Notes under the pieces: generated by a model
What the model was told of the DNA's origin: nothing
Seen by the model: the letters and a program-made list of their open reading frames with translations, nothing else
The model's database searches: none
Made by a program: the position numbers and the translations under genes
NCBI GenBank assembly: GCA_964409615.1
Contig: CAYPDT010000003.1
Coordinates: forward strand, 24,576 to 88,575
Direction: 5' to 3'
DNA: 64,000 bases
Source: an uncultured Candidatus Saccharibacteria bacterium
GTDB taxonomy: Bacteria > Patescibacteriota > Saccharimonadia > Saccharimonadales > AWTP1-31
In this document: piece by piece, positions 2,791 to 47,020 of the stretch
Layout: each line of letters starts with the position of its first letter
Numbering within the stretch: position 1 is the stretch's first letter

Positions 2791-3546
2791 ATGGGACAAA
2801 TATCCGCCAAAATTAAACCTGCTGCTGGCTTTTCGCATATTATTCATATTGCATTAACCTGTTTGCTACCAACTCTTATGTTCGTATTGGTGCGACTTGG
2901 CTTTTTCCAGTTACAACTTGGGGTAGCTCTAATCATGCTCAGTAAGTGGCGTATGTTTGCAGTCAAGCCACGACACTGGTTTGCCAATATCCGTGCAAAC
3001 GCGGTAGATATTATCGTTGGCTTATCGGCACTTATCTTTATGATTCATACTGATTCCCAACTCTTCCAATTGCTTTGGGCGGTTATATATGGTGTGTGGT
3101 TGTTAGCATTAAAACCACGTTCTACACCTCTCGGAGTCTCGTTGCAGGCGTTCATGGCACAATCAGTTGGCTTAACGGCACTTTTAATTGCCTGGGGAGA
3201 TTCTCCACTCTTTATTTTAGTTATCGGAGCATGGCTTGTCAGTTATATGTCGGCTCGACACTTTTTTGCCAACTTTGAAGAATCTATGACACGCTTTCTT
3301 TCGTTGGTTTGGGCATATTTCTCAGCAGCTATGCTGTGGGTTCTTGGCCACTGGCTACTATTTTACGGCCCTGTAGCGCAGCCAGCATTACTGCTTTCTG
3401 TAATTAGTTTTGGGCTCGGGGGCATGTACTTCCTAGAAAAGTCCGACAGAATGTCAGTAGTTTTACGTCGTCAGCTAGTCTTTGTGATGTTCGCGGTTGT
3501 GATGATAGTTTTGACTTTCTCCGACTGGGGCGATAAGGCGATTTAG
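2791..3546 (+). CDS. Polytopic membrane protein, function unknown
   Basis: The 251-aa ORF has about 7 hydrophobic helices and TGCTATAAT just upstream. I recognise no family motif. Confidence 0.6.
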   Translation: MGQISAKIKPAAGFSHIIHIALTCLLPTLMFVLVRLGFFQLQLGVALIMLSKWRMFAVKPRHWFANIRANAVDIIVGLSALIFMIHTDSQLFQLLWAVIYGVWLLALKPRSTPLGVSLQAFMAQSVGLTALLIAWGDSPLFILVIGAWLVSYMSARHFFANFEESMTRFLSLVWAYFSAAMLWVLGHWLLFYGPVAQPALLLSVISFGLGGMYFLEKSDRMSVVLRRQLVFVMFAVVMIVLTFSDWGDKAI

Positions 3547-10261: not shown

Positions 10262-10960
10262 ATGCCTACTACACATACCTCTGTACCTACTCATCTCGGA
10301 TTGATTCTCGACGGTAACCGTCGCTGGGCACGCGAACATGGCCTACCTACCATGGAAGGGCACAAGAAAGGATACGAAAACCTCAAAAATGTTGCTCAAT
10401 ACGCCTTCAAACAAGGAGTAAAGTACGTTTCGGCTTATGTGTTTTCTACCGAAAACTGGAAGCGTTCTGCAGAAGAAGTCGATTATCTGATGAAATTGCT
10501 TATTTGGGTGTCGCGACATGAAATTAAAGAGCTCGATAAAGAAAATATTCGAGTTCAATTCTTAGGAGAAGAAGAACGTTTAAGCCAAGACGTTATTAGC
10601 GCTATGGAAAGTGCTGAAGAGCGCACCAAAGATAATACCGGAGGCACACTGCTTATATGTCTTAACTACGGTGGTCACCAAGAAATAGCGACTGCTATGA
10701 ACAAAATTTTGATAAAGAATCCTGGTATCCAAGAAGTAAGCCAGGAAATGATAGAGAAGCATCTGTACAAGCCAGATGTTCCGGCTGTCGACATGATTAT
10801 TCGCACATCCGGCGAACAGCGAATAAGTAATTTTATGCTTTGGCGGGCAGCATATAGTGAGCTGTACTTTACTGATGTTCACTGGCCGGCATTTAGTGAG
10901 CAAGATTTACAACTTGCCCTTGATAATTTTGCGGCTAGGCAGCGCAGGTTTGGATCATAA
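10262..10960 (+). CDS. uppS: Undecaprenyl-diphosphate synthase (cis-prenyltransferase)
   Basis: HLGLILDGNRRWA, RTSGEQRISNFMLWRAAYSELYF and a terminal RRFG are present. Confidence 0.95.
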   Translation: MPTTHTSVPTHLGLILDGNRRWAREHGLPTMEGHKKGYENLKNVAQYAFKQGVKYVSAYVFSTENWKRSAEEVDYLMKLLIWVSRHEIKELDKENIRVQFLGEEERLSQDVISAMESAEERTKDNTGGTLLICLNYGGHQEIATAMNKILIKNPGIQEVSQEMIEKHLYKPDVPAVDMIIRTSGEQRISNFMLWRAAYSELYFTDVHWPAFSEQDLQLALDNFAARQRRFGS

Positions 10961-15268: not shown

Positions 15269-16825
15269 ATGGCAACACTAAAAGAACTTCGTGATGAACG
15301 GCTGCGCAAGCTAGATGACCTTAAAAAACTTGGGGTTAATCCATTTCCAGCAGCATCAAACAGGAACATGTCAGTGCGTGATGCGCTTGTTCGATACGAA
15401 GAGCTAGAAAAGACAGCTGATATAATCACAGTCGCAGGCCGTATAACCAATATCCGCAAATTTGGAAAAATAGCTTTTATCGTAATACGTGATGTACAAG
15501 ATACTATCCAGCTATTTCTCAGTGCAGATGGTGTATCAAGGCCAGATTTTAATAAAAGTGAACTAGCATTCGAACATCTCAATCTGCTCGATGCCGGCGA
15601 TTTCATCGAAGTTAGTGGCATTGCGGCAACAACCAAAACAGGTGAGCGCTCAATTACTGTATCCAGGCTTCGTTTATTAACTAAAAGTTTGCGGCCGATG
15701 CCGACAGTACAAGATGGATTTACGAACAAAGAAGAGAGACTACGACGCCGTTACATCGATATGAACGTCAATCAGGACGTCTACCAGCGTTTTGTTCGCC
15801 GAAGTAAGTTCTGGCAAGCAACCCGCGATTTCCTGAATAAAGAAGGTTTTCTAGAAATAAACATTCCTGTTCTCGAGCATACTACTGGCGGGGCAGATGC
15901 AAACCCATTTGTCACTCACATGGATGCGATTGATCAAGATTTTTACCTAAGAATTAGTCATGAATTACCACTTAAGCGACTTGTAGGTGCGGGTTACGAG
16001 AAGGTCTACGACATTGGGCCACGTTTTCGTAACGAGAACTATACAGATGAGCATTTACCAGAACACATCGCAATGGAATGGTATGCCGCCTACTGGGATT
16101 GGCAAAAAGGCATTGAATTTATGACCAATATGTACCGCCATGTCCTAAAAGAAACTTTTGGTACACTGCAGTTCAAACTCGGCAATTTTGATATTGACCT
16201 CTCAAAAGAATGGGAGCAGTGGGATTATGCGGAAACTATCAAGAAACGGTACGGTATTGATGTTTTTGATTGCACAATTGATGAAGTGAAGAAGGCTCTA
16301 GCAGATAATAAACTCGAAGTTGAGCAGACTGAAAATAAAGCTCGTGGTATCGATAAGCTCTGGAAAAATATCCGCAAGGACGTAGCTGGTCCAGTCTGGC
16401 TTGTCAATACACCCCTATTCATTAGCCCGTTAGCTAAAACGAATCCTGATAATCCACATACGGTTCAACGATTTCAACCCGTTATTGCGGGAAGTGAACT
16501 AGGGAATGGCTTTAGTGAGCTTAATGACCCAATTGACCAGCTGCAACGTTTTCTTGAGCAACAAAACATGCGTGACTCTGGTGACGACGAAGCAATGATG
16601 CTTGATATCGATTACGTAGAAATGCTGGAATACGGTATGCCACCGGCCTGCGGCTGGGGTTTTAGCGAACGGGTATTTTGGATTTTCGAGGGAGTTACTG
16701 CTCGTGAAGGTGTACCATTTCCTCAATTACGCAGTGATGTTGACGAGGTGACTAAGGGTATCTATCCGGAAGTTTTTACTGCCTCGAGCTCGCCAGAGCA
16801 AAAGCCAGAGACTCAATCTACATAG
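15269..16825 (+). CDS. lysS: Lysyl-tRNA synthetase, class II
   Basis: An N-terminal OB domain (VAGRITNIRKFGKIAFIVIRD), FYLRISHELPLKRL, RFRNE and GWGFSERV are present. Confidence 0.95.
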   Translation: MATLKELRDERLRKLDDLKKLGVNPFPAASNRNMSVRDALVRYEELEKTADIITVAGRITNIRKFGKIAFIVIRDVQDTIQLFLSADGVSRPDFNKSELAFEHLNLLDAGDFIEVSGIAATTKTGERSITVSRLRLLTKSLRPMPTVQDGFTNKEERLRRRYIDMNVNQDVYQRFVRRSKFWQATRDFLNKEGFLEINIPVLEHTTGGADANPFVTHMDAIDQDFYLRISHELPLKRLVGAGYEKVYDIGPRFRNENYTDEHLPEHIAMEWYAAYWDWQKGIEFMTNMYRHVLKETFGTLQFKLGNFDIDLSKEWEQWDYAETIKKRYGIDVFDCTIDEVKKALADNKLEVEQTENKARGIDKLWKNIRKDVAGPVWLVNTPLFISPLAKTNPDNPHTVQRFQPVIAGSELGNGFSELNDPIDQLQRFLEQQNMRDSGDDEAMMLDIDYVEMLEYGMPPACGWGFSERVFWIFEGVTAREGVPFPQLRSDVDEVTKGIYPEVFTASSSPEQKPETQST

Positions 16826-16873: not shown

Positions 16874-17593
16874 ATGATAGAAGTTAAAGGTGTAGTTAAA
16901 AAGTACGGCAAAAAACATAATGTATTTACCGCACTTGCGGGCATTGATTTAAAGATTGCTCAAGGTTCAACAGTGGCAATTATTGGCAAGAGTGGTTCGG
17001 GTAAATCGACACTGATGCATGTAATGAGTGGCCTTGACCATCCAACTACAGGTACGATAAAGGTCAATGGAGTTGACCTGGCCGACATGAAGCAGAAAGC
17101 ACTCGATGCTTTCAGGGCAAAATCTATGAGCTTCATCTTCCAAGCATTTTTTGTAGAGGGTAATCAAACCTGTTATCAGAATGTGATGCTACCGCTAGAA
17201 ATTGCCAAAGTTGGGCGGCGAGACCGTCGAGCACGAGTGACAGAAGCTCTTGAAGCTGTTGATCTTGCAGACAAGATTGATGTAAAAGCTCGTAACTTGT
17301 CAGGCGGTCAGCGTCAACGCCTAGCAATAGCGCGGTCAATTGTTAATAAGCCGAAATTAATTTTTGCTGATGAACCAACTGGTAATCTTGACAGCGCAAC
17401 AGGTGATAAAATTATCAAATTACTCTTTGATTTAAATAAAAACTTGGGCAGTACGCTCGTAATTGTTACACATGACGAAGAGCTTGCATCGCGCTGTCAG
17501 ATTCAGATACAACTGAAAGACGGTAAAATTGTTTCCCAAACAACAAAACGGACTAGCTCCGCAAAACCTACTACTAGAAAGAGGAGCGCATAA
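16874..17593 (+). CDS. ABC transporter ATP-binding protein (MacB/LolD-like)
   Basis: Walker A GKSGSGKST, signature LSGGQRQRLAIA and Walker B LIFADEPT are present. Confidence 0.9.
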   Translation: MIEVKGVVKKYGKKHNVFTALAGIDLKIAQGSTVAIIGKSGSGKSTLMHVMSGLDHPTTGTIKVNGVDLADMKQKALDAFRAKSMSFIFQAFFVEGNQTCYQNVMLPLEIAKVGRRDRRARVTEALEAVDLADKIDVKARNLSGGQRQRLAIARSIVNKPKLIFADEPTGNLDSATGDKIIKLLFDLNKNLGSTLVIVTHDEELASRCQIQIQLKDGKIVSQTTKRTSSAKPTTRKRSA

Positions 17594-18975
17594 TGCACAT
17601 TAGCGACATCATTAGACGTAGTGGCCGTAGTCTTAAGTCGGCAAAGGCTCGCACAATACTGACCGCACTTGCTATTGCAGTAGGCGGCTTTACACTAACC
17701 GCCACATTAGCAGCAGGTAACGGTATCCGGAGTTATACCGACAAGCTTGTGGCCAGTAATTTTGATCCTGCAGAGTTGCTTGTTGGTCGCGATGCAGAGG
17801 TGGCAAATAGTGGTACGCCTAATCAGGAGCCAAAAGAGTACGATTCTTCCATATCATCAGTCAACTTTGGTCCTGGCGGGCAGGGCGGCTTACAGTTAAA
17901 GCAAGTTACCGATAAAGATGTGGCAGAGCTACGAAAGTTGCCATTCGTTGAGCAGGTTCGTGAGAACTACAGCTTACGACTTCGTTATATAACAACCGCT
18001 GGCCAGAAACGTTTTACTGCAAGTGCAGAAACTTTTAATCCTGCACAGAAGCCAGAGCTTGCCGCTGGAACATTGAATGCTAACGGCGGCATCGATAAGG
18101 GTACAGTCGTTTTGCCAGAAAACTACCTGTCGGTATTCAAGATAAAAGATGCCCAGTCGGCAGTTGGTAAGACGATACAAGTGAATATTCAAAAGCAATT
18201 TACACAAACCGATGCAAGTAGCGTGCTCGATGCAGTACGCAATGGAGTTGACCCAGCAACTCTTAATACGCTGGGTGATCAAACACTATCGTTCAAGGTG
18301 GTAGCAGTAAGCAAGAAGGCAGCAACAAGTATAAGCTTTGGTGCTTTACCGGTCTTGTTCTCAAATGACGATGCAAAAGTTATCTACGACTACACTACCA
18401 AAGGTTCTGCGGATTACCTACGATACTTCTATGTGTATGTGCGTGTGAAAGAAGGTGCAACAGATGCAAAGTTACGGGCAGCGCAAGACCAGCTCAAGGC
18501 AAAGCAATACTTTACGCAAAGTAGTAAAGATATACAGAAATCTATTACCCAAGTAGTTAATATATTGCAGGTTCTAGTGGGTGTTTTCGGTCTTATAACA
18601 CTCATGGCCTCTGTATTCGGCATTGTTAATACCCAGTACATTAGTGTACTAGAGAGAACTCGTGAAATTGGTCTCATGAAAGCCCTTGGAATGCGTAGTC
18701 GTGACATTCGCCGCTTGTTTATGCTCGAGGCGGGCTGGATTGGATTCTTGGGGGGATTCATTGGTGCGACGGTAGCTATTCTGGTCGGTATTCCCCTTAA
18801 TCCATGGATAAGTAAAAAACTTGATTTAGGCGCAGGTAATAGCTTGTTAATCTATCGTCCAGCACAAATCATCGCCCTGATGTTGGCATTAATCCTCATT
18901 GCAATGCTTGCCGGATTCTTGCCTGCGCGCAAAGCTGCAAAACTGGATCCTATTGAAGCACTGCGTACCGAGTAA
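17593..18975 (+). CDS. ABC transporter permease, FtsX/MacB type with a large extracytoplasmic domain
   Basis: An N-terminal TM helix, a loop of about 270 aa, then a 3-TM FtsX domain (REIGLMKALGMRSRDI...KLDPIEALR). The start overlaps the ATPase stop. Confidence 0.85.
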   Translation: MHISDIIRRSGRSLKSAKARTILTALAIAVGGFTLTATLAAGNGIRSYTDKLVASNFDPAELLVGRDAEVANSGTPNQEPKEYDSSISSVNFGPGGQGGLQLKQVTDKDVAELRKLPFVEQVRENYSLRLRYITTAGQKRFTASAETFNPAQKPELAAGTLNANGGIDKGTVVLPENYLSVFKIKDAQSAVGKTIQVNIQKQFTQTDASSVLDAVRNGVDPATLNTLGDQTLSFKVVAVSKKAATSISFGALPVLFSNDDAKVIYDYTTKGSADYLRYFYVYVRVKEGATDAKLRAAQDQLKAKQYFTQSSKDIQKSITQVVNILQVLVGVFGLITLMASVFGIVNTQYISVLERTREIGLMKALGMRSRDIRRLFMLEAGWIGFLGGFIGATVAILVGIPLNPWISKKLDLGAGNSLLIYRPAQIIALMLALILIAMLAGFLPARKAAKLDPIEALRTE

Positions 18976-19014
18976 CGAGCTACATTAAAGAAACATAACT
19001 AGGAGGAGACTGAT

Positions 19015-19317
19015 ATGAAAGCAATATGGAAAGACAAAGTGATTGCAGAGGCGGATCGCAAAGAGTTGATATATATCGAAGGAAATTGGTATTTTCCACC
19101 AGCATCAGTTAAGCAAGAATTCTTGAGCAAGAGTCCCACGCCTTACACATGCCCCTGGAAAGGTGTTTGCCAATATTTTAACGTAGGTACTGGCGACGAT
19201 ATTAGCCAAGACAACGCTTGGAGCTACCCGGAACCACTTCCTACTGCAATCGACCAAGTCAAGAAAGACTTTAGTAATTACGTCGCATTCTGGAAAGATG
19301 TCACTGTAAGCGAATAA
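19015..19317 (+). CDS. DUF427-family protein
   Basis: KVIAEADRKELIYIEGNWYFPPASV...TCPWKGVCQYFNV follows the DUF427 pattern. AGGAGGAG serves as SD. Confidence 0.7.
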   Translation: MKAIWKDKVIAEADRKELIYIEGNWYFPPASVKQEFLSKSPTPYTCPWKGVCQYFNVGTGDDISQDNAWSYPEPLPTAIDQVKKDFSNYVAFWKDVTVSE

Positions 19318-19326
19318 AATAGGAAT

Positions 19327-19863
19327 ATGACAGACACCAAAGACTTGCAATACATAACCCTTGGGGGTGGCTGTTTTTGGTGTCTTGATGCCGGGTTCCG
19401 TCTGATTAATGGGGTTACTAGTGTTGTGTCGGGTTATGCTGGAGGAGACGGTGAGGCAAGCTACTACGAAGTATCCAGTGGAAAAACTGGTCATGCAGAG
19501 GTGGTTAGAGTGGGTTTTGACACCTCGGTTATAGCACTAAAAGACATTTTAGATATCTTCTGGGCCATGCACAATCCAACAACTTTGAATTTTCAGGGCA
19601 ATGACCATGGTCCCCAATATCGCTCCATAATTTTATATGAGAATGACTTACAACGTCCTGTGATTGATGAGTCGATACAGCATGTAGCTAAACTGTGGGA
19701 CGACCCAATTGTCACGGAAGTTGTACGGTTGACCAAGTTTTACGAAGCAGAGCAGGAACATCAAGACTATTTTCAGAAACACCCAGAAGCTGCCTACTGC
19801 CAAGTTATTATTAATCCAAAACTCGCAAAATTACGTGCAAAGTTCCAGGCAAAATTACGTTGA
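19327..19863 (+). CDS. msrA: Peptide-methionine (S)-S-oxide reductase
   Basis: GGGCFWC is the active site, and GHAEVVRVGFD and DHGPQYRS are present. Confidence 0.95.
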   Translation: MTDTKDLQYITLGGGCFWCLDAGFRLINGVTSVVSGYAGGDGEASYYEVSSGKTGHAEVVRVGFDTSVIALKDILDIFWAMHNPTTLNFQGNDHGPQYRSIILYENDLQRPVIDESIQHVAKLWDDPIVTEVVRLTKFYEAEQEHQDYFQKHPEAAYCQVIINPKLAKLRAKFQAKLR

Positions 19864-19874
19864 AGATTAATTAG

Positions 19875-20537
19875 TTACAGTTGCTTCGCCTCAATCACGA
19901 AGCGCTTTGCGGTACTGCCAAGAGGATAGCAGGTATACATTGTTAGTTTTTTCGGTACATTCGGGTCGTTGTCTCTAATATCTACTTCGCTTGGCAACAC
20001 CGTTTTAGAGTTGTAGACCTCGTATTCATAGGTTTTATCTTGCCATCGTATATATATTTTTTGGCCATTTTTTAGTTCTGGGAGGCTATAAAACCAACCA
20101 CCATTCGTTGCGGTGTATAAGAACCGGTGCCCGGCTATAACAATGTTGCCATTTTCTGAAGGGTCAATTGTGCCTGTCTCTCTCCATACACCCTGGTTCT
20201 TACCAATAACATAGATGTTTGACCCGTCTATAACTTGTGCATCAACACCAATGCTTGGCAGGATAAGCCTATTGCCCGGTTTAGCTACTTCTGGGCTGCT
20301 CGGTCGACCGTTTTTAGTAGCTTGTGCTGCTGCTTGGTAGGACGTAGCATCTATTCTAGGGCGCTGTATAAGGAAACGTAGTCGTGGTAAATACGGCAGG
20401 ACTAGTAAGACAAGACTAACGATAGCAATACAGCAAAGCCCAAAAAGAATCACCCTTGTTTTTAAAGTGCGTTTCGGGCTTTTGTTCCTGCTACGGACTA
20501 TTGAGCTTCGTTGGGGAATTGATAGTTTAGATTTCAT
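19875..20537 (-). CDS. Sortase (membrane-anchored transpeptidase)
   Basis: A TM anchor, IAGHR (His), TMYTCYP (Cys) and a distal Arg are present. I chose the start at ATG 20537 (MKSKLSIPQ...). The ORF extends to 20621. Confidence 0.85.
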   Translation of the reverse strand: MKSKLSIPQRSSIVRSRNKSPKRTLKTRVILFGLCCIAIVSLVLLVLPYLPRLRFLIQRPRIDATSYQAAAQATKNGRPSSPEVAKPGNRLILPSIGVDAQVIDGSNIYVIGKNQGVWRETGTIDPSENGNIVIAGHRFLYTATNGGWFYSLPELKNGQKIYIRWQDKTYEYEVYNSKTVLPSEVDIRDNDPNVPKKLTMYTCYPLGSTAKRFVIEAKQL

Positions 20538-20578
20538 GATTCTTATGGTTAGTATATCACTCATGCCACTTTGATTTG

Positions 20579-20587
20579 TGGTATAGT
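20579..20587 (+). promoter_or_regulatory. Extended -10 element (TGgTATAGT) 6 nt upstream of the heliorhodopsin ATG
   Basis: The sequence is read directly. No SD lies between it and ATG 20594, which implies a leaderless transcript. Confidence 0.5.
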
Positions 20588-20593
20588 GCTGGT

Positions 20594-21397
20594 ATGAAAT
20601 TACGCAAAAAAACAGCTCCAACTATCACTACACAATCATTACATTCATGGAATAAGCGCCTGGCAGTCCTCCATGCACTGCAAGGAATTCTAGTTCTTGT
20701 ACTGAGTAAAGCAAACACTTGGCCTGTATCGACATCATTTTTGACTCTTGATTCAGCCGCATCTAAAATAGCGGGCAAGCCAGTTTTAGCTACTGCATCA
20801 CACCCAGTGTTTAACGTAAACCTAGCCTATCTTGTAGCTATTTTTTTCTTCATGTCGGCAATTGCACATACCGTTATTAGTACTAAATACCGGAAGACAT
20901 ATGAGCAGAATCTAAAGAAGGGAATTAACAAGGCTCGATGGATTGAATATAGCTTGAGCGCAAGTGTCATGATGGTCGCAATCGGACTTTTGAGCGGTAT
21001 TTACGACCTGTCATCGTTATTGATGATTTTTGTCTTAGACTTACTTATGAATAGTATGGGCTTGGTGATGGAGCTAAAGAATCAGGGCGCTAAAAAAATT
21101 GATTGGCTACCGTACAAGCTTGGCTGTCTTGCAGGTATCGTGCCGTGGATTGTTTTCGCAGTTTATGTAACTGGGACTAATGTATACGGCTCTGGCGGTA
21201 TACCAACATTTGTATACTTTATCTATGGCAGTATGTTCCTACTATTTAATAGCTTCGCCCTTAATATGTACTTGCAATACACCAAGAAGGGTAAATGGGC
21301 AGACTATCTTTATGGTGAGCGCGTGTATATGATTCTGAGCTTAGTAGCCAAAAGTCTGTTGGCTTGGCAGGTATTCTTTGGAGCTTTGCGTCCGTAG
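20594..21397 (+). CDS. Heliorhodopsin (7-TM retinal protein)
   Basis: Long colinear identity blocks match the prototype heliorhodopsin as I remember it: NKRLAVLHALQ, SAIAHTVIS, NKARWIEYSLSASVMMV, GCLAGIVPWIVF, FNSFALNMYLQYTKKGKWADYLYGERVYMILSLVAKSLLAWQVFFGALRP. Confidence 0.85.
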   Translation: MKLRKKTAPTITTQSLHSWNKRLAVLHALQGILVLVLSKANTWPVSTSFLTLDSAASKIAGKPVLATASHPVFNVNLAYLVAIFFFMSAIAHTVISTKYRKTYEQNLKKGINKARWIEYSLSASVMMVAIGLLSGIYDLSSLLMIFVLDLLMNSMGLVMELKNQGAKKIDWLPYKLGCLAGIVPWIVFAVYVTGTNVYGSGGIPTFVYFIYGSMFLLFNSFALNMYLQYTKKGKWADYLYGERVYMILSLVAKSLLAWQVFFGALRP

Positions 21398-21455
21398 CTC
21401 GACCTCCTATGTTACTACTAGACTGTGGTTGTGACACAAGAGATTACTAATAGTT

Positions 21456-22712
21456 ATGAAAAAACCCAGAGAAGTTGAGCTCGTAATTACTAAAATGGTT
21501 CATGGTGGCCAAGGTATGGGCACCCTAGAAGATGGCCGGAAAGCCTTTGTATGGGGCGCACTCCCTAATGAGCGTGTGCGGGTGATCCTGACTCGACAAA
21601 AAAAAGACTATGTTGAAGGGGTTGCCAACGAAATCCTAGAGGCTTCACCCAATAGAATCAATCCAAAAGAGTCCATATTTTTGGCAACTTCACCGTGGCA
21701 AAATATGACACTACAGGCAGAACATCAGGCTATGAAAGAAATTGTTTCCGAGGTGTATGCACGCGAGAAAATATCGCTTCCAGACTACGATGTAGTCAGT
21801 GATGGTAATGAGTTCGGTTACCGTAATAAGATTGAATTTTCCTTTTATGGTGATGACGCAGGTTTGCACTATGCTTTCTATAATCGTGGTACGCACCGAA
21901 AACAAATTGTCGAGGATAGCGCTCTAGCTCTTACCAGTATAAATACGGCTGCAACAGCATTACTAGAAGAACTGAATAATAAAAGTGTTCGTGCTGGAGA
22001 CCTCAAATCGGTTATTTTGCGGACTACCCAAGAAGGAAAAGTGGTTGCCGCCTTGTTCGTCAAGCCAACAGAATTCACCACACTGGCCCTACCGCAATCT
22101 CTAGCTGGTTTGAAAATATACCACTCAAATCCTAAGAGTCCCGCATCTGTAAAAACGCAACTTTTACATGAGATAGGTAACACAACACTGCAAGATAATT
22201 TGCTTGGCAGCACTTTAGAGTACGATGTAACTGGTTTTTTTCAGGTGAATCTTCCTGTATTTATTTTGGCACTCAAACGTATAGCTGACTTTACTAAGGA
22301 TTTAGCCCATAAAATAGACATGTATGCTGGTGTTGGTAGTATCGGCATACCCATTGGTGGTACGGAAGTGCTTGTAGAACTCGATGAAGCTAATGTTGAT
22401 ATGGCTACAAATAACGCACGCGGTAAAGATATACGTGTAGTTCAATCAAGTTCGGAGCAGGCATTAGATTATATACAATCTGATTGTTGCTTGATTGTTG
22501 ATCCCCCAAGGAGCGGGTTACATAAGGATGTTATTGACCGGATACTGAGCCAGTTGCCAGCCAGAGTTTGCTACCTATCATGCAATCCTGCTACACAGGC
22601 TCGGGATGTTGCTATGCTTTCAAGCGCTTACTCAATAAGCTTTTTCGAATGTTATAATTTTTTCCCGCGTACTCCACATATCGAGACTCTGATACTATTA
22701 GAAAAGAAATGA
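21456..22712 (+). CDS. RNA (uracil-5-)-methyltransferase, RlmD/TrmA family with an N-terminal TRAM-like domain
   Basis: VTKMVHGGQGMG...VWGALPNERVRV (TRAM), FFQVN, DMYAGVGSIG and VDPPRSGL are present, with a Cys near the C-terminus. Confidence 0.8.
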   Translation: MKKPREVELVITKMVHGGQGMGTLEDGRKAFVWGALPNERVRVILTRQKKDYVEGVANEILEASPNRINPKESIFLATSPWQNMTLQAEHQAMKEIVSEVYAREKISLPDYDVVSDGNEFGYRNKIEFSFYGDDAGLHYAFYNRGTHRKQIVEDSALALTSINTAATALLEELNNKSVRAGDLKSVILRTTQEGKVVAALFVKPTEFTTLALPQSLAGLKIYHSNPKSPASVKTQLLHEIGNTTLQDNLLGSTLEYDVTGFFQVNLPVFILALKRIADFTKDLAHKIDMYAGVGSIGIPIGGTEVLVELDEANVDMATNNARGKDIRVVQSSSEQALDYIQSDCCLIVDPPRSGLHKDVIDRILSQLPARVCYLSCNPATQARDVAMLSSAYSISFFECYNFFPRTPHIETLILLEKK

Positions 22713-23389
22713 AAATTCATAGATTTTACACACCAGAAATTCGTCTAGAGCATGGTTTTTGGTTGAAAGACGAAAGATTACTTCATCAATGGACCAAAGT
22801 CCTTCGCTTTCGAATAGGTCAGCAGGTGGTGCTTTTTAATGGGCTAGACACAGACAGGCTGTATAGTATTACCGAAATTAATAGCAATGAAGCGCATCTA
22901 GAGCTAGTTACTGACTATAGTCGGAAAGTGCCTAAGAAAGATATCTATCTATTCTGGTCACTCTTAAAAAAAGATAAGAATGACTGGGTACTACAAAAAT
23001 GCACTGAACTAGGAGTGAGTCATTTTATTCCGTTGTTGTCGGATAGGTCAGAAAAAACCGGTTTTAATATCGAACGTGCTCAAAAAATAGTCATTGAAGC
23101 TTCTGAGCAGTGCGGCCGGAGTGATATCCCCACACTCAGAGAGCCAATGCATGTCGGTACGGCACTTGAGCAGTATGCCAAAAAAGTCACCATATATATT
23201 TGCGAACAAGACTCTAATGATAGCGGAGTGACTACTGATAAGGTTGGTGTGTTGATTGGACCTGAGGGTGGGTGGAGCGACGACGAAAAAGCCTTATTTC
23301 AACAACTAGGGCTTAAGCATTTGAGTCTGCACGATTTTACGTTACGCGCCGAGACGGCCAGCGTGGCTGCAATTACAAAACTGAACTAG
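22709..23389 (+). CDS. rsmE: 16S rRNA (uracil1498-N3)-methyltransferase
   Basis: MKIHRFY..., LIGPEGGWSDDE and the SPOUT tail LRAETASVAAI are present. The start overlaps the upstream stop by 4 nt. Confidence 0.85.
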   Translation: MKIHRFYTPEIRLEHGFWLKDERLLHQWTKVLRFRIGQQVVLFNGLDTDRLYSITEINSNEAHLELVTDYSRKVPKKDIYLFWSLLKKDKNDWVLQKCTELGVSHFIPLLSDRSEKTGFNIERAQKIVIEASEQCGRSDIPTLREPMHVGTALEQYAKKVTIYICEQDSNDSGVTTDKVGVLIGPEGGWSDDEKALFQQLGLKHLSLHDFTLRAETASVAAITKLN

Positions 23390-36939: not shown

Positions 36940-37344
36940 ATGGATGAACCAATAACTAATACAGCGCCAACAAAACAGTATAAGATTCTTCTCGTTGAAG
37001 ATGACGATGCACTAGCAAGTGTTTATCAGACACGTCTGCAAGCAGAAGGCTTCGATGTAAAGCGCGTGCCCAATGGGGAAGATGCCCTTGCTGGTGCCCT
37101 AGAGTACAAGCCAGACTTAATTGTATTAGATGTCATGATGCCTAAGGTCAGTGGGTTTGATGTGCTCGACATACTTCGAAATACACCAGAGACAGCTAAA
37201 GTAAAAGTCGTCATGCTAACAGCCTTGAGCCAAGATAGCGACAAAGAACGCGCCCAGAAGCTTGGTGCAGATGACTACTTAGTAAAATCGCAAGTTGTTA
37301 TTGCGGATGTTGTAGAGCGAATCAAGCATCACCTAACAGCATAG
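36940..37344 (+). CDS. Stand-alone response-regulator receiver domain (CheY-like), canonical
   Basis: LLVEDDD, LIVLDVMMP (phospho-Asp), VVMLTAL (Thr) and DYLVKS (Lys) are present. Confidence 0.9.
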   Translation: MDEPITNTAPTKQYKILLVEDDDALASVYQTRLQAEGFDVKRVPNGEDALAGALEYKPDLIVLDVMMPKVSGFDVLDILRNTPETAKVKVVMLTALSQDSDKERAQKLGADDYLVKSQVVIADVVERIKHHLTA

Positions 37345-37442: not shown

Positions 37443-38693
37443 ATGGCTAATCCAGAAAAACTAACACCCCACGAACCTGTACAAATTGGACCCCTCGATA
37501 GGGTTAGGCTTGGTGGTGATGAAGCTGCAATCTGTGCAGCGTTTGACCTTACCCCAACATATGAAGGAGAAGAGCCATCACCACGTATGATATTGATGGA
37601 TGTTGGTTTTCGTAAAGATGGCAACGGGCAATTCGGGCCTTACGATTTAGATGGCAGTGGCGAAAAACGTACATTTAGCAGCAGTTACGTTATGATGACT
37701 CAGCGCAAAGACAGGGATGGCAATGCTGTTTCATATTTTGCTGAGGTACCCGTGGGTAAACAGATAGAGCTAGGTAGAGAATCTGCCATTGCGCAACAAC
37801 TTGGTTATTCTGAGGACACGACTGTTTCTCGTAGGCACGCTAAATTAACCATTGATGGTGAATGGGGAAATATCACCCTAGAAGACCAGGGTTCTCTGAA
37901 TGGTACTGGTAAGCCTTTGTCACTCGAGCGCGTTTTGCATGCAGACCGCAAGTCGGATTTTGGTTACACTGTTAATATCCGTGAAAACGTAAGCCAGGCT
38001 GGAAAGGGTAGATTCTATCAACCACCCGAAACAGAGAGGGGCTGGGGTCATGGAGTATACGGTGATCGACCCATTATTGCACGTGACACACCTATTAACG
38101 GAGGCGTTTACCCTGTAGGTCACCGTGACGGTGAGGCTTTGGTTATCGATGATGTGAAGTATCCAGCAGCTTACGAAAAACTGTATGGCAAACTTGAAGA
38201 AGTTTTGCGTACTGGAGATATCGCTAAGTTTAGTCTTGGGGCGTTAAAGAGACGAATTGGCGCCGAATACAGTAGTCAGGAAATGGGGGTTGTAAAGGCA
38301 ACGCTCGACTTAGTCATGGACACGCTGCGCTACAGTATCCCCGAGACTGACGCTCTCGCAAGTCGCGGCCAAAAGATTGAGTTATCTATGTATATCCAGA
38401 AAGGTGTTGGAGTGTGTAGAACGCAGGCAGCGCTCTCTGCCTACTTGGTCGAAAGACTGATAAAGAGTGGCAAACTGGATGGTCGTGTTTCTATAGACCG
38501 TAACATGTCCCAGACTATTAATGGTGAAAGGGGCGGTCACGCTTGGGCGCGCTATACATCTGCAAGCGGCCAGGTTTATATAATCGACCCTGCACAGCGT
38601 TTTGCCGGCACTCTTGCCGATGCGCAAAACAATCCACGTTCATGGGATTATCGTAGGACAGAAGACCTCACAAGAGAGTTGATGGTAGCCTAG
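37443..38693 (+). CDS. FHA-domain protein fused to a C-terminal transglutaminase-like (Cys-His-Asp) domain
   Basis: The FHA domain reads VGKQIELGRES...TTVSRRHAKLTIDGEWGNITLEDQGSLNGTG. The TGase-like core reads GVGVCRTQAALSAYL...GGHAWARYT...VYIIDPA. I see no signal peptide. Confidence 0.7.
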   Translation: MANPEKLTPHEPVQIGPLDRVRLGGDEAAICAAFDLTPTYEGEEPSPRMILMDVGFRKDGNGQFGPYDLDGSGEKRTFSSSYVMMTQRKDRDGNAVSYFAEVPVGKQIELGRESAIAQQLGYSEDTTVSRRHAKLTIDGEWGNITLEDQGSLNGTGKPLSLERVLHADRKSDFGYTVNIRENVSQAGKGRFYQPPETERGWGHGVYGDRPIIARDTPINGGVYPVGHRDGEALVIDDVKYPAAYEKLYGKLEEVLRTGDIAKFSLGALKRRIGAEYSSQEMGVVKATLDLVMDTLRYSIPETDALASRGQKIELSMYIQKGVGVCRTQAALSAYLVERLIKSGKLDGRVSIDRNMSQTINGERGGHAWARYTSASGQVYIIDPAQRFAGTLADAQNNPRSWDYRRTEDLTRELMVA

Positions 38694-39062: not shown

Positions 39063-40280
39063 TTAAATTCTCGAAAGGACAACTAGTTCACGGGCGACCA
39101 CTTGGCCTTCGCGGTGGTAGATTATATCCTCCTGCCGAGCGTGAACAAATTCTATACGATTATACCCAAGTTCATCGAGAATATCAAGTGTTTTAAGGTG
39201 TTTGAACCCCTGTGGGGTTTTCCAGGCAGGTACCGCGATGCACATCTTGAACCCTGGGGGAGTTTGACGAGCGACATTTTGTAAAAATTTCTTGTGAATG
39301 TGGTTTACATCTTGCATTACTTCTTGCAGAGTAGAAGCTTCGGGTTGCGAGGAGAACGGTCGGCCAAGATAGGTCTCGCAGGCGATAACATCAAAGGGTT
39401 CCCAACTAAACTTAGTAGCATCACCTTGTGACAAGTTGTAGTTAGGGAAGCCGTCATCTAGTCTTTCGACAAGCCACGCCATATTATCCTTAGAATATTC
39501 AATCATACGAGTTTCAAGATCAGTACCGTAGGCTTCGTACCCCATCAAGAGCGCTTCTTGTAGAATTACTCCAGTTCCACAGAAGGGGTCGAGAAGTTTT
39601 GTGATACGACCTGCCTTAGAATGATCAATTTGCTCGGGAGTCGGTTTTTTCCCATCAACAAGATGGCTGCCGGCTAAGTTGATAATAATCTGTGCAAGTT
39701 TTGGTGGCAGCATACCCACTTTTGAATCGCGCTTCGGGCGACCTTGGTCGCGGGCAGCGTAGGCATCGATATCTTGTTCGGCAACTGTCTGGGCCAGGAT
39801 TGCGCTATGACCATGACGAACTACGACCAGTTCTATGCCAAGAGGGGAGGTCAGCTGATTGTATAACACCTGTGCGCTGTTCAAGGCCTTTTCGTTGTTT
39901 GGGACGACACGTACCGAACGACCACAGGATTTGACGATTTTTTTAAGTCGCAGAGCACTTCGACTCACTGCTGCTCCATCTACATCGATTTCGTAGGCAC
40001 TTATGCCGAACTTAATTTTACCCTCGGGCATAGTAGCTACCAGACGAGGCAGTTCTTTTTCGATGTGATTAACAATTTTAGGCCATTGAGCAGCAGGTAT
40101 TGTTGCTATAACTTTCGCTAATTTCATGCTGCCGCCAAGCGTGAACCGTACTTCTGATGTTGGGACATCTAGTAAGACTGCCTGGAGTCCGACTGGCGTT
40201 AGGGCGTCTGCACCAAAGCGGCTTTCAAGTTCTGCTAGGCCAAGTGCCGGCTGTCTCCCGAGAATTAAGAGTGATTGCAT
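39063..40280 (-). CDS. Class I SAM-dependent methyltransferase, Trm11/Trm-G10-like (putative RNA m2G methylase) with an N-terminal THUMP-like region
   Basis: RPKRDSKVGMLPPKLAQIIINLA and LLDPFCGTGVILQEALLMGYEAYGTDLE are present. Motif IV reads IACETYLGRPF instead of DPPYG. The start is at ATG 40280 (MQSLLILGRQP). Confidence 0.7.
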   Translation of the reverse strand: MQSLLILGRQPALGLAELESRFGADALTPVGLQAVLLDVPTSEVRFTLGGSMKLAKVIATIPAAQWPKIVNHIEKELPRLVATMPEGKIKFGISAYEIDVDGAAVSRSALRLKKIVKSCGRSVRVVPNNEKALNSAQVLYNQLTSPLGIELVVVRHGHSAILAQTVAEQDIDAYAARDQGRPKRDSKVGMLPPKLAQIIINLAGSHLVDGKKPTPEQIDHSKAGRITKLLDPFCGTGVILQEALLMGYEAYGTDLETRMIEYSKDNMAWLVERLDDGFPNYNLSQGDATKFSWEPFDVIACETYLGRPFSSQPEASTLQEVMQDVNHIHKKFLQNVARQTPPGFKMCIAVPAWKTPQGFKHLKTLDILDELGYNRIEFVHARQEDIIYHREGQVVARELVVLSRI

Positions 40281-40312
40281 ACAGGCTATTATATAGGTAA
40301 CTGCCGTAAGAT

Positions 40313-40330
40313 CACCAAAAACACCAAAAA
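40313..40330. repeat. Tandem 9-mer CACCAAAAA x2 in a divergent intergenic region
   Basis: Read directly. The same 9-mer or 8-mer recurs at 37433-37441 and 56861-56869, immediately upstream of start codons. Confidence 0.6.
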
Positions 40331-40349
40331 TGGTACTATAAGAGAATAT

Positions 40350-41381
40350 ATGAGTCAGCAATCAAAAGCCCAATGGAAGATAATATTAAACATCGCCACA
40401 TTTACGGGCTTACTTGTGCTTATCTTCGCTATACGAGGCCAAATTGCAGAAAGTTTTCGTACTATCGGGCACATCAGATGGTGGTGGTTGTTGCTATTAC
40501 CGGTCTGGCAGTTGCTGAATTACGATGCTTATGCCAGACAGAATAGGGACTTATTTGCAATCCTTGGTAAAAAGATAAGTTACAAGTTTTTAATAAAGGT
40601 AAATTTAGAGCTCAACTTTGTTAATCACGTATTCCCTAGTGGAGGGGTGTCGGGCTTTTCGTACTTCAGCTTACGTTTAAAAGATAAGAACATTAGCGGG
40701 GCGCAAGCATCACTAGTGCAGTTGTTGCGATTTGTACTTGTCTATATAGCATTTATGGCGCTGTTAATTATGGCGCTAATTATGCTGAGTTTTAGCGGGC
40801 ATGTTAATCGCTTTGTACTGTTGGCCGGTGGCTCCATCTCTACACTTATCGTAATGGCCACGTTGATGATGGCTTTTGTTATTGGTAGCCAACGTCGGAT
40901 TAATGCTTTCTTTGGGTTTATTACCAAAACGCTCAATCGTCTTATTCATATTGTTCGGCCAAAGCATCCCGAGACTATTAATGTGCAGCGCGCAAAAGAT
41001 GCATTTGAAGATTTGCACCAAAATTACGCAATCATCAAAAACGATTACAAAGTACTCAAATGGCCTCTAATATGGTCTTTGGTAGCCAACGTCACAGAAA
41101 TTCTCACTGTCTATACAGTCTACTTGGCTTTTGACCACATCGTTAACCCTGGGGCAATCATTCTGGCTTATGCACTAGCAAATATGGCGGGATTCCTATC
41201 CGTATTACCAAGTGGGGTGGGCGTTTATGAAGCACTCATGACGGCCGTTTTAGCTATAGGTGGAGTATCGCCAGCAATTAGCATTCCGGTTACCGTGATG
41301 TACCGTGTGCTTAGTATGATAATTCAGCTGGTACCTGGGTATTACTTCTATCAGCGACGCATGCGACAATCCAAGTCATGA
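40350..41381 (+). CDS. Polytopic membrane protein, UPF0104 / MprF-flippase-like family (tentative)
   Basis: The protein has about 8 TM helices and an N-terminal pattern (...IFAIRGQIAESFRTIGHIRWWWLLLLPVWQLLNY) typical of lysylphosphatidylglycerol-synthase-TM-region proteins. The start is at ATG 40350. Confidence 0.55.
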   Translation: MSQQSKAQWKIILNIATFTGLLVLIFAIRGQIAESFRTIGHIRWWWLLLLPVWQLLNYDAYARQNRDLFAILGKKISYKFLIKVNLELNFVNHVFPSGGVSGFSYFSLRLKDKNISGAQASLVQLLRFVLVYIAFMALLIMALIMLSFSGHVNRFVLLAGGSISTLIVMATLMMAFVIGSQRRINAFFGFITKTLNRLIHIVRPKHPETINVQRAKDAFEDLHQNYAIIKNDYKVLKWPLIWSLVANVTEILTVYTVYLAFDHIVNPGAIILAYALANMAGFLSVLPSGVGVYEALMTAVLAIGGVSPAISIPVTVMYRVLSMIIQLVPGYYFYQRRMRQSKS

Positions 41382-42720: not shown

Positions 42721-43383
42721 ATGAAGAAGTTAAATCAACAGGGTTCAGTCGACTCGTGGCTTGTTGCCTTTGTTTTAACCTTAGTACTACTTCTCGGGTC
42801 ACTCGGTTTTGGGTTTGCTATGTTCTCGTCGCGTCAGGATTATAAGAACAATGTTGACCAGAAGATTTCTGATGCCGTTGGATCTGCACAAGAGACTCTG
42901 ACGCAAAAAAAGGAAGCAGAGTTTTTAGAGCGTGAAAAACAGCCACTTCGAACGTACACCGGACCTGCTGCATACGGAAGTCTAGCCATAAGTTACCCGA
43001 AAACCTGGGCTGCGTATATTGACGAGTCGGGCAAGTCGAGTAGCCCTGTTGATGGTTATCTAAACCCGGCTTTTGTACCTGGTTTGCAAGACAATCCAAT
43101 TGTGGCATTGCGATTTCAGGTAATCGACACTGCCTATGCACAGGCTATAAAGAATCTTGAACCACAGGTAAAGCTCGGAAAGATTAAGACTGTTCCATTT
43201 GTGGCTGCTAAGGTACCAAGCATTACTGGTGTACGTGTTGACGGTGAAGTTGCAGTAAAGAAAACTGGTGCAATGATAATCTTACCGTTGCGCGACAAGA
43301 CGCTTAAGATATGGACAGAGTCACCACAGTTTGTTCCAGACTTTAACGACATTATTCTAACTAATCTTACGTTCGTCCCTTAG
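42721..43383 (+). CDS. Membrane-anchored hypothetical protein
   Basis: A single N-terminal TM helix (WLVAFVLTLVLLLGSLGFGFAMF) precedes a 170-aa extracytoplasmic domain. I recognise no motif. Confidence 0.6.
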   Translation: MKKLNQQGSVDSWLVAFVLTLVLLLGSLGFGFAMFSSRQDYKNNVDQKISDAVGSAQETLTQKKEAEFLEREKQPLRTYTGPAAYGSLAISYPKTWAAYIDESGKSSSPVDGYLNPAFVPGLQDNPIVALRFQVIDTAYAQAIKNLEPQVKLGKIKTVPFVAAKVPSITGVRVDGEVAVKKTGAMIILPLRDKTLKIWTESPQFVPDFNDIILTNLTFVP

Positions 43384-43463: not shown

Positions 43464-44192
43464 ATGGTGTTGCGAGATGATCAAAAAAGTTATACAGATA
43501 ATGAAGAGGCTCGACTCTTTTCAGTGCTGGCACAAAGCCTTCAGCAGCCGTTTATGACCATTGCTCGCACGGCAGAATTGCTTTCAAACCAGCCAGACAG
43601 TGCGTTGGCTGAGAACATCCAACATACTGCCGACTCGGCTGTTGCACTACTTGATCATTACTTGTTGGGGATACGCCTACAACAGGCAGATTCGGAGATG
43701 TTCTTAGTGCCGGTTTCTCTAGCGGCAAGTTTGTCTGATGTAGCTCATCAGCTTGAACATGCAGCCAAGCGTTACGACTGTGATGTAGAATTACATCTCG
43801 CCGGTAAGTACGGGCCGATTATGGCTCATGGTGGAGGTTTAACTGCCGCATTGCTTGATGTGGGGACTGCTTTTCTTGAGAGTCAGGGGCAGAGAACACA
43901 CACTAAAAGACCTGTTATAAAATTAGCAGCCCACCGAACGCGTCATGGTATCGTGGCGGGTGCTTTCACTGATATTGATGGCTTGAGCGTTGACATGTTT
44001 CGTCGTGCCAAGACGCTGTACGGCCAGTCGAATGCTCCCATATCTCAATTAACTGCTATGCCTGGTGCTGGCCTGTTCGTGGCTGACTCTTTGCTAAGAA
44101 GCATGTCTGGAGGTTTACGAGTGGCACATCATCAAAGAATGACTGGACTAGCTGCCACCTTTGCTCCCAGTCAGCAATTATCATTAGTGTAA
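43464..44192 (+). CDS. Soluble histidine-kinase-like protein (DHp plus CA-like fold) lacking the phospho-accepting His and the N-box Asn
   Basis: The H-box region FSVLAQSLQQPFMTIARTAELL aligns to F..a.SHELRTPLtsI.gyaELL with Gln in place of His. The G2-like element is MPGAGLFVADSLLRSMSGGLRV. No NxxxNA box is visible. Confidence 0.6.
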   Translation: MVLRDDQKSYTDNEEARLFSVLAQSLQQPFMTIARTAELLSNQPDSALAENIQHTADSAVALLDHYLLGIRLQQADSEMFLVPVSLAASLSDVAHQLEHAAKRYDCDVELHLAGKYGPIMAHGGGLTAALLDVGTAFLESQGQRTHTKRPVIKLAAHRTRHGIVAGAFTDIDGLSVDMFRRAKTLYGQSNAPISQLTAMPGAGLFVADSLLRSMSGGLRVAHHQRMTGLAATFAPSQQLSLV

Positions 44193-44566
44193 TGGCGCGC
44201 ATCCTGCTTATCGAACCTGATTACGCACTGAGTGAACTGTATCGAGTGCATCTCGAAAGTGAAGGGTATGAAGTACTGCAAAGAAAAACTGCCGAAAGTG
44301 CTGTTATGGCACTCGATGAACAGTCTGTTCAGCTAGTAATCTTAGAGCTCCAGTTGGCAGTTCATAACGGAGTTGAATTTTTGTATGAAATTCGGTCTTA
44401 TCCAGAATGGCAGGGTTTACCGGTACTGCTGCATACTAATGTACGTAAAAATGCGCTGCCACAAGACGCACTGCAACGCTTAGGCATTACAAAATATATG
44501 TACAAACCGACATCAAATCTACAAGACTTGTCTAAGGCAATTAAAAAGATATTGTCAGCGTCATGA
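44192..44566 (+). CDS. Receiver-domain protein with Glu at the phospho-acceptor position (pseudo-receiver)
   Basis: ILLIEPD replaces the DD pair. QLVILELQLA replaces DlvllDl.mP, giving D to E at the acceptor. Thr (LLHTN) and Lys (YMYKP) are retained. The start overlaps the upstream stop by 1 nt. Confidence 0.7.
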   Translation: MARILLIEPDYALSELYRVHLESEGYEVLQRKTAESAVMALDEQSVQLVILELQLAVHNGVEFLYEIRSYPEWQGLPVLLHTNVRKNALPQDALQRLGITKYMYKPTSNLQDLSKAIKKILSAS

Positions 44567-46646: not shown

Positions 46647-47020
46647 TGGGCTCGATGGTGGAACTTAATGACACGTTGCGGATTACAAAAGAGCAGGGGT
46701 TTCCTGTAAAACTAGATATTGTAAAACATCTTAAAACGCCCTATTCACTAAGCGATGTTGCTGACCAAATATTTACTTTTAGTGCTAAGCCTAAAATTAG
46801 AGTCTATCAGCAGCCACCTGTACGTAATTTTCTGGCCGAAGACCTCGATGGAAAATGGATTTACTGGGGACAGTGCCATATTTTAGAGATTCACCACGAC
46901 TATACTACTGGAATGACCAGCGGAAAGTATAAGATTATCCGACTTAATACTCCCGAAGAAATGCGACAAATGTTTGCACAGACTGACTCACGACCAGATT
47001 TCAACTACTTCGAAAATTAA
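46646..47020 (+). CDS. Hypothetical protein (124 aa), translationally coupled to glyQS
   Basis: A TAATG stop/start overlap links it to glyQS. I recognise no motif. Confidence 0.55.
   Translation: MGSMVELNDTLRITKEQGFPVKLDIVKHLKTPYSLSDVADQIFTFSAKPKIRVYQQPPVRNFLAEDLDGKWIYWGQCHILEIHHDYTTGMTSGKYKIIRLNTPEEMRQMFAQTDSRPDFNYFEN

Follow-up and report, generated by a model that had tools for sequence, protein, structure and literature searches.

What does a heliorhodopsin (HeR) gene do in a cell that seems to have no retinal of its own, and do the genes beside it say anything about its role? The question is raised by a 64-kb stretch of DNA from an uncultured Candidatus Saccharibacteria bacterium (contig CAYPDT010000003.1; the whole stretch is called the window below), in which a gene for a seven-helix protein stands next to genes for a sortase, a peptide-methionine (S)-S-oxide reductase (MsrA) and a DUF427 protein. 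A first inspection made from the letters alone (the sequence-only reading) had called these four genes, and Pfam matches place each of them where it had put them (Table 1). We think it likely that the first of these is a functional heliorhodopsin of the Saccharibacteria cell, acting as a retinal-scavenging light sensor or regulator. What is shown directly is that the protein belongs to the heliorhodopsin family, keeps its conserved residues and has the predicted fold and charge-based topology of a heliorhodopsin, and that the gene has a syntenic place, a conserved promoter and a record of purifying selection.

The HeR open reading frame (ORF) matches the Pfam family PF18761 at 296 bits (cutoff 26.7) and the NCBIfam equivalog NF038020 "heliorhodopsin HeR" at 302.3 bits (cutoff 100), the latter over the full profile (1-244/244), and a standard annotation pipeline would therefore already name this gene a heliorhodopsin. 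A phmmer search of the PDB sequences returned heliorhodopsins only, among them TaHeR (6is6, E=6e-62) and 48C12 (6su3, E=4e-51), and residues 9-267 align colinearly with residues 4-255 of 48C12 (6su3/9ljj); identity is 47.7% to TaHeR (241 aligned residues) and 43.6% to 48C12. The family call of the sequence-only reading and the colinearity with the prototype that it had claimed are thus borne out by the profile searches and the 48C12 alignment, all of the peptide blocks that it quoted are present in the HeR translation, and the Schiff-base lysine, the glutamate counterion and the two histidines that it named do lie at homologous positions (K253=K241, E118=E107, H27=H23 and H92=H80 of 48C12). 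S249 corresponds to S237, and R115, W116, Y119, E160, P184, W185, N219 and W258 likewise match 48C12 residues (R104, W105, Y108, E149, P172, W173, N207 and W246). The Schiff-base lysine sits in the SxxxK motif of helix 7 (S249-L-V-A-K253), and an alignment of 20 relatives shows no variation at K253, E118, H27 or H92.

An AlphaFold2 model made with 20 relatives as input (predicted local distance difference test score 83.4, predicted template-modelling score 0.80) has seven helices (residues 13-37, 77-96, 113-133, 139-162, 172-198, 205-230 and 242-264) and two strands (43-52 and 65-75) that make up the A-B loop beta-hairpin typical of solved heliorhodopsins. The top Foldseek matches of this model are TaHeR and 48C12, with template-modelling (TM) scores of 0.82-0.85 (0.85 for TaHeR) and 40-44% identity, and type-1 rhodopsins score about 0.5-0.6 with 8-16% identity. 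The N-terminal tail and loops 2, 4 and 6 together carry 14 lysine and arginine residues, and loops 1, 3 and 5 and the C-terminal tail carry 4, a distribution that fits an inverted topology with a cytoplasmic N-terminus; the inverted topology that the sequence-only reading gives for heliorhodopsins in general is upheld here to the extent that charge predicts it. Membership among the type-1 rhodopsins is contradicted by the same data, since the protein has no PF01036 (Bac_rhodopsin) match at E<=0.01, has SLVAK instead of DxxxK, and has a charge pattern that predicts the N-terminus inside. Many Saccharimonadia HeR orthologues are 313-326 aa long and begin with a long, low-complexity extension rich in Lys, Ala, Thr and Ser that is predicted to be cytoplasmic (L087 7090-8037, L089 7080-8024, L091 934-1914 and L093 1803-2744; also L045, L047, L048, L059 and L062), and by contrast the window HeR starts with the short basic tail MKLRKKTAPT.

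The lateral fenestration motif, which comprises in 48C12 numbering aromatic residues at 162 and 206, small residues at 166 and 210, G169 and N207, is complete in the window protein (aromatic Y174 and F218, small C178 and A222, G181 and N219); the definition of this fenestration and of the proposed carotenoid-binding site is that of Shihoya 2019 and of a preprint (10.1101/2025.11.27.691015). Pfam scans that took in essentially all window ORFs of about 115 aa or more detected no Blh (PF15461), CrtB, CrtI, CrtY, CrtE, carotenoid oxygenase or type-1 rhodopsin (SacR included) in the 64 kb, in agreement with the earlier statement that blh and crt genes are absent from the window, and the sole prenyltransferase/isoprenoid enzyme encoded there is the undecaprenyl-diphosphate synthase UppS (10262-10960). 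Saccharibacteria with rhodopsins have been found to lack blh, and heliorhodopsin takes up exogenous retinal rapidly (Jaffe et al. 2022, PMC9296517). Import of retinal from the host or the surroundings, which the sequence-only reading had already suggested, agrees with this published work and with the intact fenestration motif, and on these grounds is the most likely source of the chromophore.

Comparison with five orthologues gave 0.11-0.19 non-synonymous differences per non-synonymous site (pN) versus about 0.8 synonymous differences per synonymous site (pS); the latter value is saturated, and pN and pS are for this reason reported in place of dN/dS. These values speak for strong purifying selection on HeR, which is no relic. 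An identical protein is encoded on 18 contigs of the same gene order, and of 7,286 database matches at E<1e-10 the closest named ones come from "Candidatus Saccharibacteria" or "Saccharimonadales", several of them already labelled "heliorhodopsin HeR" by NCBI. More than 575 relatives were found in species-representative genomes, and the best 80 of these (55-82% identity) belong almost all to Saccharibacteria metagenome-assembled genomes (MAGs), with a few from Dojkabacteria. A published survey lists 80 heliorhodopsins in Saccharimonadia and finds SLVAK to be the commonest motif in the Candidate Phyla Radiation (CPR) (Chiriac et al. 2022, PMC9166423).

Heliorhodopsins have been described as sensory switches in monoderms, to which their distribution is reported to be restricted (Bulzu 2021, PMC8612252), a restriction that the sequence-only reading also mentions. 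The window supports a monoderm host indirectly, through the Saccharibacteria relatives, the sortase and the lack of any outer-membrane biogenesis family among all of its Pfam matches. It carries ParAB, ribosomal and translation genes, many aminoacyl-tRNA synthetases, SecA, the division and cell wall (dcw) cluster, FtsEX with a PcsB-like CHAP hydrolase, a penicillin-binding protein, FtsW and MurG, a gene content that fits a reduced monoderm CPR genome. The sortase is a monoderm-envelope enzyme and a monoderm hallmark, and fits the reported restriction. Two Saccharibacteria-like heliorhodopsins (59-61% identity) are filed in MAGs of other organisms, one on a 3.3-kb contig of a Magnetospirillaceae bin (L064) and one on a 1.6-kb contig of a Methanofastidiosum bin (L081); their presence in a diderm proteobacterial and a methanogen MAG is most likely due to binning errors, which could blur the "monoderm-only" distribution. 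One Saccharibacteria MAG has two HeR genes in tandem (L025, 8001-9700).

How the gene is expressed can be predicted from the DNA just upstream of it. The sequence-only reading had given the spacer between the divergent sortase and HeR genes as 56 bp; several automatic gene calls start the sortase at an alternative ATG (20564), which would shorten the spacer to 29 bp, and the longer value holds because the N-termini of sortase orthologues (MKxKLxIxQR...) support the start at 20537. The HeR ATG is preceded by an extended -10 element (Table 1) and by no Shine-Dalgarno (SD) sequence, and from this geometry and the missing SD a leaderless HeR mRNA that begins at about 20594 is predicted. The same arrangement, TGnTAnnnT located 5-8 nt before an in-frame ATG, is found at 45 of 86 HeR loci, compared with 1 and 0 for two off-frame controls, and at loci where MsrA directly adjoins HeR (L054 and L078) HeR still has a promoter of its own. 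A generic sigma-70 scan of 18800-21700 did not pick up a -35/-10 pair between HeR and the sortase, the extended -10 having been recognised by direct reading and by comparison across loci, and no terminator after HeR was found in the same scan. The next gene begins 58 bp downstream, neither it (RlmD/TrmA-like) nor the RsmE gene has a -10 or SD of its own, and in relatives the gene that follows HeR often abuts or overlaps it; HeR may be co-transcribed with these RNA methyltransferase genes, and read-through into the genes that follow is plausible and is a reflection of genome compaction. Many other window genes are headed by the extended -10 arrangement (among them SerRS, PDDEXK, FtsE and the class-II aminoacyl-tRNA synthetase gene at 45303-46646), (TGn)TAnnnT ends 5-8 nt before the start, with no SD, at 23430, 24256, 31120, 42721, 45303, 49461 and other starts, and DUF427, HisRS and GreA have a strong SD instead. 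The pattern suggests that leaderless transcripts are frequent in this Saccharibacteria genome, and the extended -10 is the organism's usual promoter style and no peculiarity of HeR.

We compared the neighbours of HeR at 80 species-level HeR loci and at 7 further loci that were anchored on the PDDEXK nuclease gene downstream; upstream neighbours were counted over the 72 loci with >=2.5 kb of upstream DNA and synteny over the 54 loci with >=6 kb on both sides. HeR occupies a slot in the order HisRS, GreA, LysRS, variable cassette, HeR, second variable cassette, PDDEXK, SerRS, HPF, SecA. The PDDEXK gene lies downstream of HeR in 47/54 loci and HeR is at the same slot in six of the seven PDDEXK-anchored relatives, and this fixed position in a conserved housekeeping block marks HeR as a long-standing gene of vertical inheritance and not as a mobile accessory. 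Other genes of the cassettes, labelled by reading their sequences, encode class-I LysRS and small zinc-protease-like, HdeD-like membrane and pilin-like proteins, with an HAD phosphatase downstream. As a separate observation on this block, the LysRS that follows GreA is of class II (PF00152) in some Saccharimonadia, as in the window (15269-16825), and of class I (PF01921) in others (L089 2692-4227, L090 2866-4398, and cluster c18 in L011, L020, L023, L040, L044 and L046), which looks like a non-orthologous displacement in situ.

The most recurrent neighbour is MsrA, which is found within 1.2 kb upstream of HeR in 33/72 loci and within 300 bp in 12 of them, in both orientations (it is inverted in L067, L089 and L093). 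DUF427 lies within 2.5 kb in 24 of the 72 loci, a MacB-type transporter within the same distance in 18, and a divergent sortase adjoins HeR in 17, all of which belong to the subclade closest to the window. In the HeR-sortase-msrA neighbourhood pointed out by the sequence-only reading, the msrA adjacency is thus frequent, and that of the sortase is confined to this subclade and looks incidental. As for the suggestion of that reading that the neighbourhood could link to light or oxidative stress, the MsrA/DUF427 adjacency belongs to one syntenic block, and the neighbourhood, though conserved, is no independent evidence of a functional link. MsrA is near HeR in none of the seven non-syntenic HeR loci, so that the adjacency exists only inside the syntenic block. 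A Logan contig (ERR4682460, L090, 7921-9279) has the block with MsrA at its usual site, followed by a 64-aa ORF and then an HAD hydrolase, and has no HeR, nor did tblastn find a HeR remnant in it; conversely, L092 has HeR without MsrA. The MsrA-HeR adjacency is real but is explained by the descent of one syntenic block, and we treat it as a lead and not as evidence of coupling. Non-orthologous replacement of MsrA, with identity classes of 35-42% versus 47-69%, was considered as a sign that the adjacency is selected and was rejected, the classes being a near-continuum within one homology cluster. MsrA, DUF427 and sortase are not mentioned in the neighbourhood analyses of Bulzu 2021 (PMC8612252) and Cho 2024 (PMC11109279). 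The recurrent neighbours at the non-syntenic loci, as read from sequence, are phosphoketolase, PNPase, an HxlR-type regulator, GluRS and small membrane proteins, and none of these offered a photobiology lead.

The working of the protein can be sketched with the help of its characterised homologues, from which retinal binding and uptake, a slow non-pumping photocycle and regulation of a partner would be expected. The mRNA would be leaderless, transcribed from the gene's own extended -10 and possibly together with the RNA methyltransferase genes, and the seven-helix product would insert into the membrane with its N-terminus in the cytoplasm. The organism is most likely unable to make retinal, and all-trans retinal would be taken in by way of the lateral fenestration, which lies between helices 5 and 6 (Y174, C178, G181, F218, N219 and A222), and would bind covalently to K253, forming a protonated Schiff base whose counterion is E118. 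Light would isomerise the retinal and set off a slow photocycle with no net ion transport, and a long-lived state would be read by a partner protein on the basic cytoplasmic face, which would make the protein a light sensor or regulator; a plausible output is the tuning of stress-protection or housekeeping activities. Regulation of a partner by a heliorhodopsin has been shown for an ABC exporter (OcHeR-OmrDE, Cho et al. 2024, PMC11109279), and glutamine synthetase and photolyase are reported partners in work cited there. A role as sensor or regulator is consistent with the hypothesis that heliorhodopsins mitigate oxidative stress, as a "light-dependent switch against photo-oxidative stress" (PMC8612252, PMC9166423).

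Several points weigh against this picture. Histidine kinase, glutamine synthetase, photolyase and the other published partner classes are absent from the HeR transcription unit, and the output pathway is therefore a guess; with a divergent sortase upstream, RNA methyltransferase genes downstream and a promoter directly at the HeR ATG, the gene falls outside operons with any of the ten neighbour groups recognised for heliorhodopsins (PMC11109279). Some viral heliorhodopsins transport protons, so that a sensor is not the sole reading, and a 2025 preprint argues that heliorhodopsins are carotenoid-antenna light harvesters (10.1101/2025.11.27.691015). The retinal-binding and signalling role of Saccharibacteria heliorhodopsins is putative, as it is drawn from homologues, and the HeR promoter and leaderless start are predictions from the DNA. 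The negative result for retinal genes covers the window, which is less than one tenth of a typical Saccharibacteria genome.

Another explanation is that HeR and DUF427-MsrA form a photo-oxidative repair module in which light-activated HeR binds or up-regulates MsrA and methionine sulfoxide repair rises in light. The frequency of MsrA upstream of HeR, its persistence beside HeR even when inverted, the published oxidative-stress hypothesis and the analogy with the glutamine synthetase and photolyase cases, soluble enzymes whose regulation by heliorhodopsins is cited in PMC11109279, all speak for it. We nevertheless consider it unlikely, given that the adjacency is confined to one vertically inherited block, that MsrA and HeR each occur at the block without the other (L090 and L092), that the HeR promoter is its own even with MsrA abutting, that a divergent sortase separates the two genes in the window, and that MsrA is missing from the ten gene groups that recur beside heliorhodopsins and Bulzu 2021 makes no mention of "methionine sulfoxide". 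That HeR might instead modulate the neighbouring MacB-type ABC transporter in light, as OcHeR does the OmrDE multidrug exporter, has in its favour the HeR-ABC precedent (PMC11109279), the position of the ABC ATPase and MacB_PCD/FtsX permease genes 1.6-3.7 kb upstream of HeR, and their recurrence near it in other loci. This transporter is of another ABC class, however, with separate ATPase and permease where the exporter is a fused heterodimer, three genes and a strand switch lie between it and HeR, and only a quarter of the loci have it; it belongs to the same variable cassette region of the syntenic block, and co-location is explained by descent. Such modulation is in our opinion highly improbable.

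A different possibility is that HeR serves mainly in energy or ion transport or in light harvesting, either as a light-gated proton conductor like the viral V2HeR3 or as a "two-antenna" rhodopsin with exogenous xanthophylls. The complete fenestration/carotenoid-binding-site motif would suit an antenna, and xanthophylls would be within reach of an episymbiont on pigmented hosts. On the other hand, its closest solved relatives 48C12 and TaHeR (44-48% identity), the characterised bacterial and archaeal heliorhodopsins, reportedly show no ion transport. CPR cells lack conventional routes to a proton-motive force (PMC9296517), which again favours such a role, but light harvesting in Saccharibacteria is done by separate type-1 DTS pumps (PMC9296517), the transporting viral subfamily is placed among the heliorhodopsins that lack the fenestration motif (10.1101/2025.11.27.691015), and the antenna idea comes from docking and that preprint only; we give this explanation little credence. 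Hardly any likelihood attaches to the notion that the gene is a decaying or non-functional relic in a cell that cannot make the chromophore. The lack of retinal and carotenoid genes in the window and the reduced symbiotic genome would agree with it, but it is contradicted by the conservation data: the ORF is unbroken and has a usual length, relatives keep all catalytic and pocket residues unchanged, pN is far below pS, the promoter is conserved, and the gene is kept at the same locus in dozens of species. The light sensor or regulator fed by scavenged retinal is thus the reading that we prefer.

Table 1. Genes and elements at and around the heliorhodopsin locus, in positions of the window.
Feature	Position	Strand	Basis or remark
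Heliorhodopsin (HeR) coding sequence, 267 aa	20594-21397	+	Pfam PF18761, E=2.4e-88, whole profile 1-242/242
HeR codon H27	20672-20674		
HeR codon H92	20867-20869		
HeR codon E118	20945-20947		counterion
HeR codon K253	21350-21352		Schiff-base Lys
Extended -10 promoter element TGGTATAGT	20579-20587	+	ends 6 nt before HeR ATG; read directly from the sequence
Divergent sortase/HeR intergenic spacer, 56 bp	20538-20593		sortase start at ATG 20537
Membrane-anchored sortase, 220 aa	19875-20537	-	PF04203, E=1.5e-24
MsrA, peptide-methionine (S)-S-oxide reductase, 178 aa	19327-19863	+	PF01625, E=3.9e-55; GCFWC active-site motif
DUF427 (Pfam NTP_transf_9) protein, 100 aa	19015-19317	+	PF04248, E=1.4e-22; strong Shine-Dalgarno sequence (taggaggag)
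MacB-type ABC transporter, ATPase	16874-17593	+	upstream of the DUF427-msrA pair
MacB-type ABC transporter, MacB_PCD/FtsX permease	17593-18975	+	upstream of the DUF427-msrA pair
RlmD/TrmA-like RNA uracil-C5 methyltransferase	21456-22712	+	downstream of HeR, same strand
RsmE	22709-23389	+	downstream of HeR, same strand, after the RlmD/TrmA-like gene

MsrA also matches TIGR00401 (msrA) at 163.8 bits (cutoff 108.1). Its gene follows the DUF427 stop codon after 9 bp and probably forms an operon with it; in the relatives L088 (5592-6424) and L091 (1-754) the DUF427 and PMSR genes abut or overlap at their stop and start codons, and this tight pairing (19015-19863 in the window) points to a DUF427-MsrA operon. 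The sortase keeps the catalytic His (AGHR), the TxxTC-type Cys motif (LTMYTC) and the Arg (AKRF) and matches the TIGR01076 sortase family at 64.7 bits (cutoff 39.35), with all class-specific models below their cutoffs, and a crude regular-expression search of the window found no LPXTG-type substrates for it.

No histidine kinase was detected in the window. At 15-23 kb from HeR there are genes for two response-regulator receiver proteins that stand alone (36940-37344 and 44192-44566) and for one FHA-domain protein (37443-38693). Elsewhere (51169-52769), an NYN-domain nuclease comes after a KwaB-like protein (DUF4868; Pfam E=2.6e-10, PADLOC KwaB E=4e-11); no KwaA can be recognised upstream, the preceding gene being an HAD hydrolase, and the pair may represent an incomplete or variant defence locus of the Kiwa type. 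A 432-aa methyltransferase on the minus strand (39063-40361) matches the PADLOC "mad2" model of the MADS system (E=1.9e-16), and no other MADS components were seen near it. Six sizeable ORFs are without any Pfam match (2791-3546, 42721-43383, 43464-44192, 46646-47020, 57914-58261 and 62467-63402).

Much of what the window contains in this respect is already published, namely the heliorhodopsins of Saccharimonadia, their SLVAK motif and the oxidative-stress hypothesis (PMC9166423, PMC8612252), and the finding that rhodopsin-bearing Saccharibacteria do not make retinal (PMC9296517). The window HeR is one more orthologue in a catalogued group, and its identification, while accurate, is already known. 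The present analysis adds that the syntenic slot is fixed and the leaderless promoter conserved, and gives counts of the neighbours with controls; these additions are incremental. They mean that HeR in Saccharimonadia is a stable, vertically inherited gene of a core block rather than a mobile accessory, and the gene's own conserved leaderless promoter argues against simple operon-based prediction of its partner. MsrA and DUF427, as its most recurrent neighbours, are cheap, testable candidates for the output of CPR heliorhodopsins. It is unlikely that HeR is functionally coupled to DUF427-MsrA, such that light sensing with scavenged retinal switches on the repair of methionines damaged by photo-oxidation in an ultra-small cell attached to its host; if it were, this would be a new class of HeR partner and the first physiological context for DUF427, and the coupling would be relevant to the function of heliorhodopsins at large.

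Among known systems, the closest solved structure is TaHeR from a Thermoplasmatales archaeon (PDB 6IS6, 7U55). The two proteins share the counterion Glu, the His pair, the SxxxK lysine, the A-B loop beta-hairpin and the fenestration tyrosine (Y174 is Y164 in TaHeR), and the host of TaHeR is likewise without retinal synthesis, TaHeR being cited in PMC9296517 as quick to take up exogenous retinal. Unlike the archaeal protein, the window HeR comes from a CPR bacterium, has a longer A-B loop and carries a 5-residue insertion in the helix 5-6 region. The prototype 48C12, from an actinobacterial fosmid (PDB 6SU3, 6UH3), is colinear over the whole length, and differs from the window HeR at Q213 (M225, as in TaHeR), N138 (D149), S112 (A123) and F162 (Y174). 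The SacRs, type-1 DTS-motif proton pumps of Saccharibacteria (PMC9296517), have the host lineage, the external retinal and the idea of uptake through a fenestration in common with it, but the window HeR is of another family, with SxxxK in place of DxxxK, the opposite predicted topology and no pumping expected. With the partner-regulating heliorhodopsins (OcHeR-OmrDE and the glutamine synthetase and photolyase cases, PMC11109279) it probably shares a mode of action, a slow photocycle read via basic cytoplasmic loops; unlike them, it is co-transcribed with none of the ten published neighbour classes, and the MacB-type ABC genes are in another transcription unit. The heliorhodopsins of Saccharimonadia and other CPR bacteria (PMC9166423 and NCBI-annotated MAGs), which include relatives at 55-82% identity from at least 80 species-level genomes, have the same lineage, the same SLVAK motif and the same predicted orientation, and the window HeR shows no difference in kind from them.

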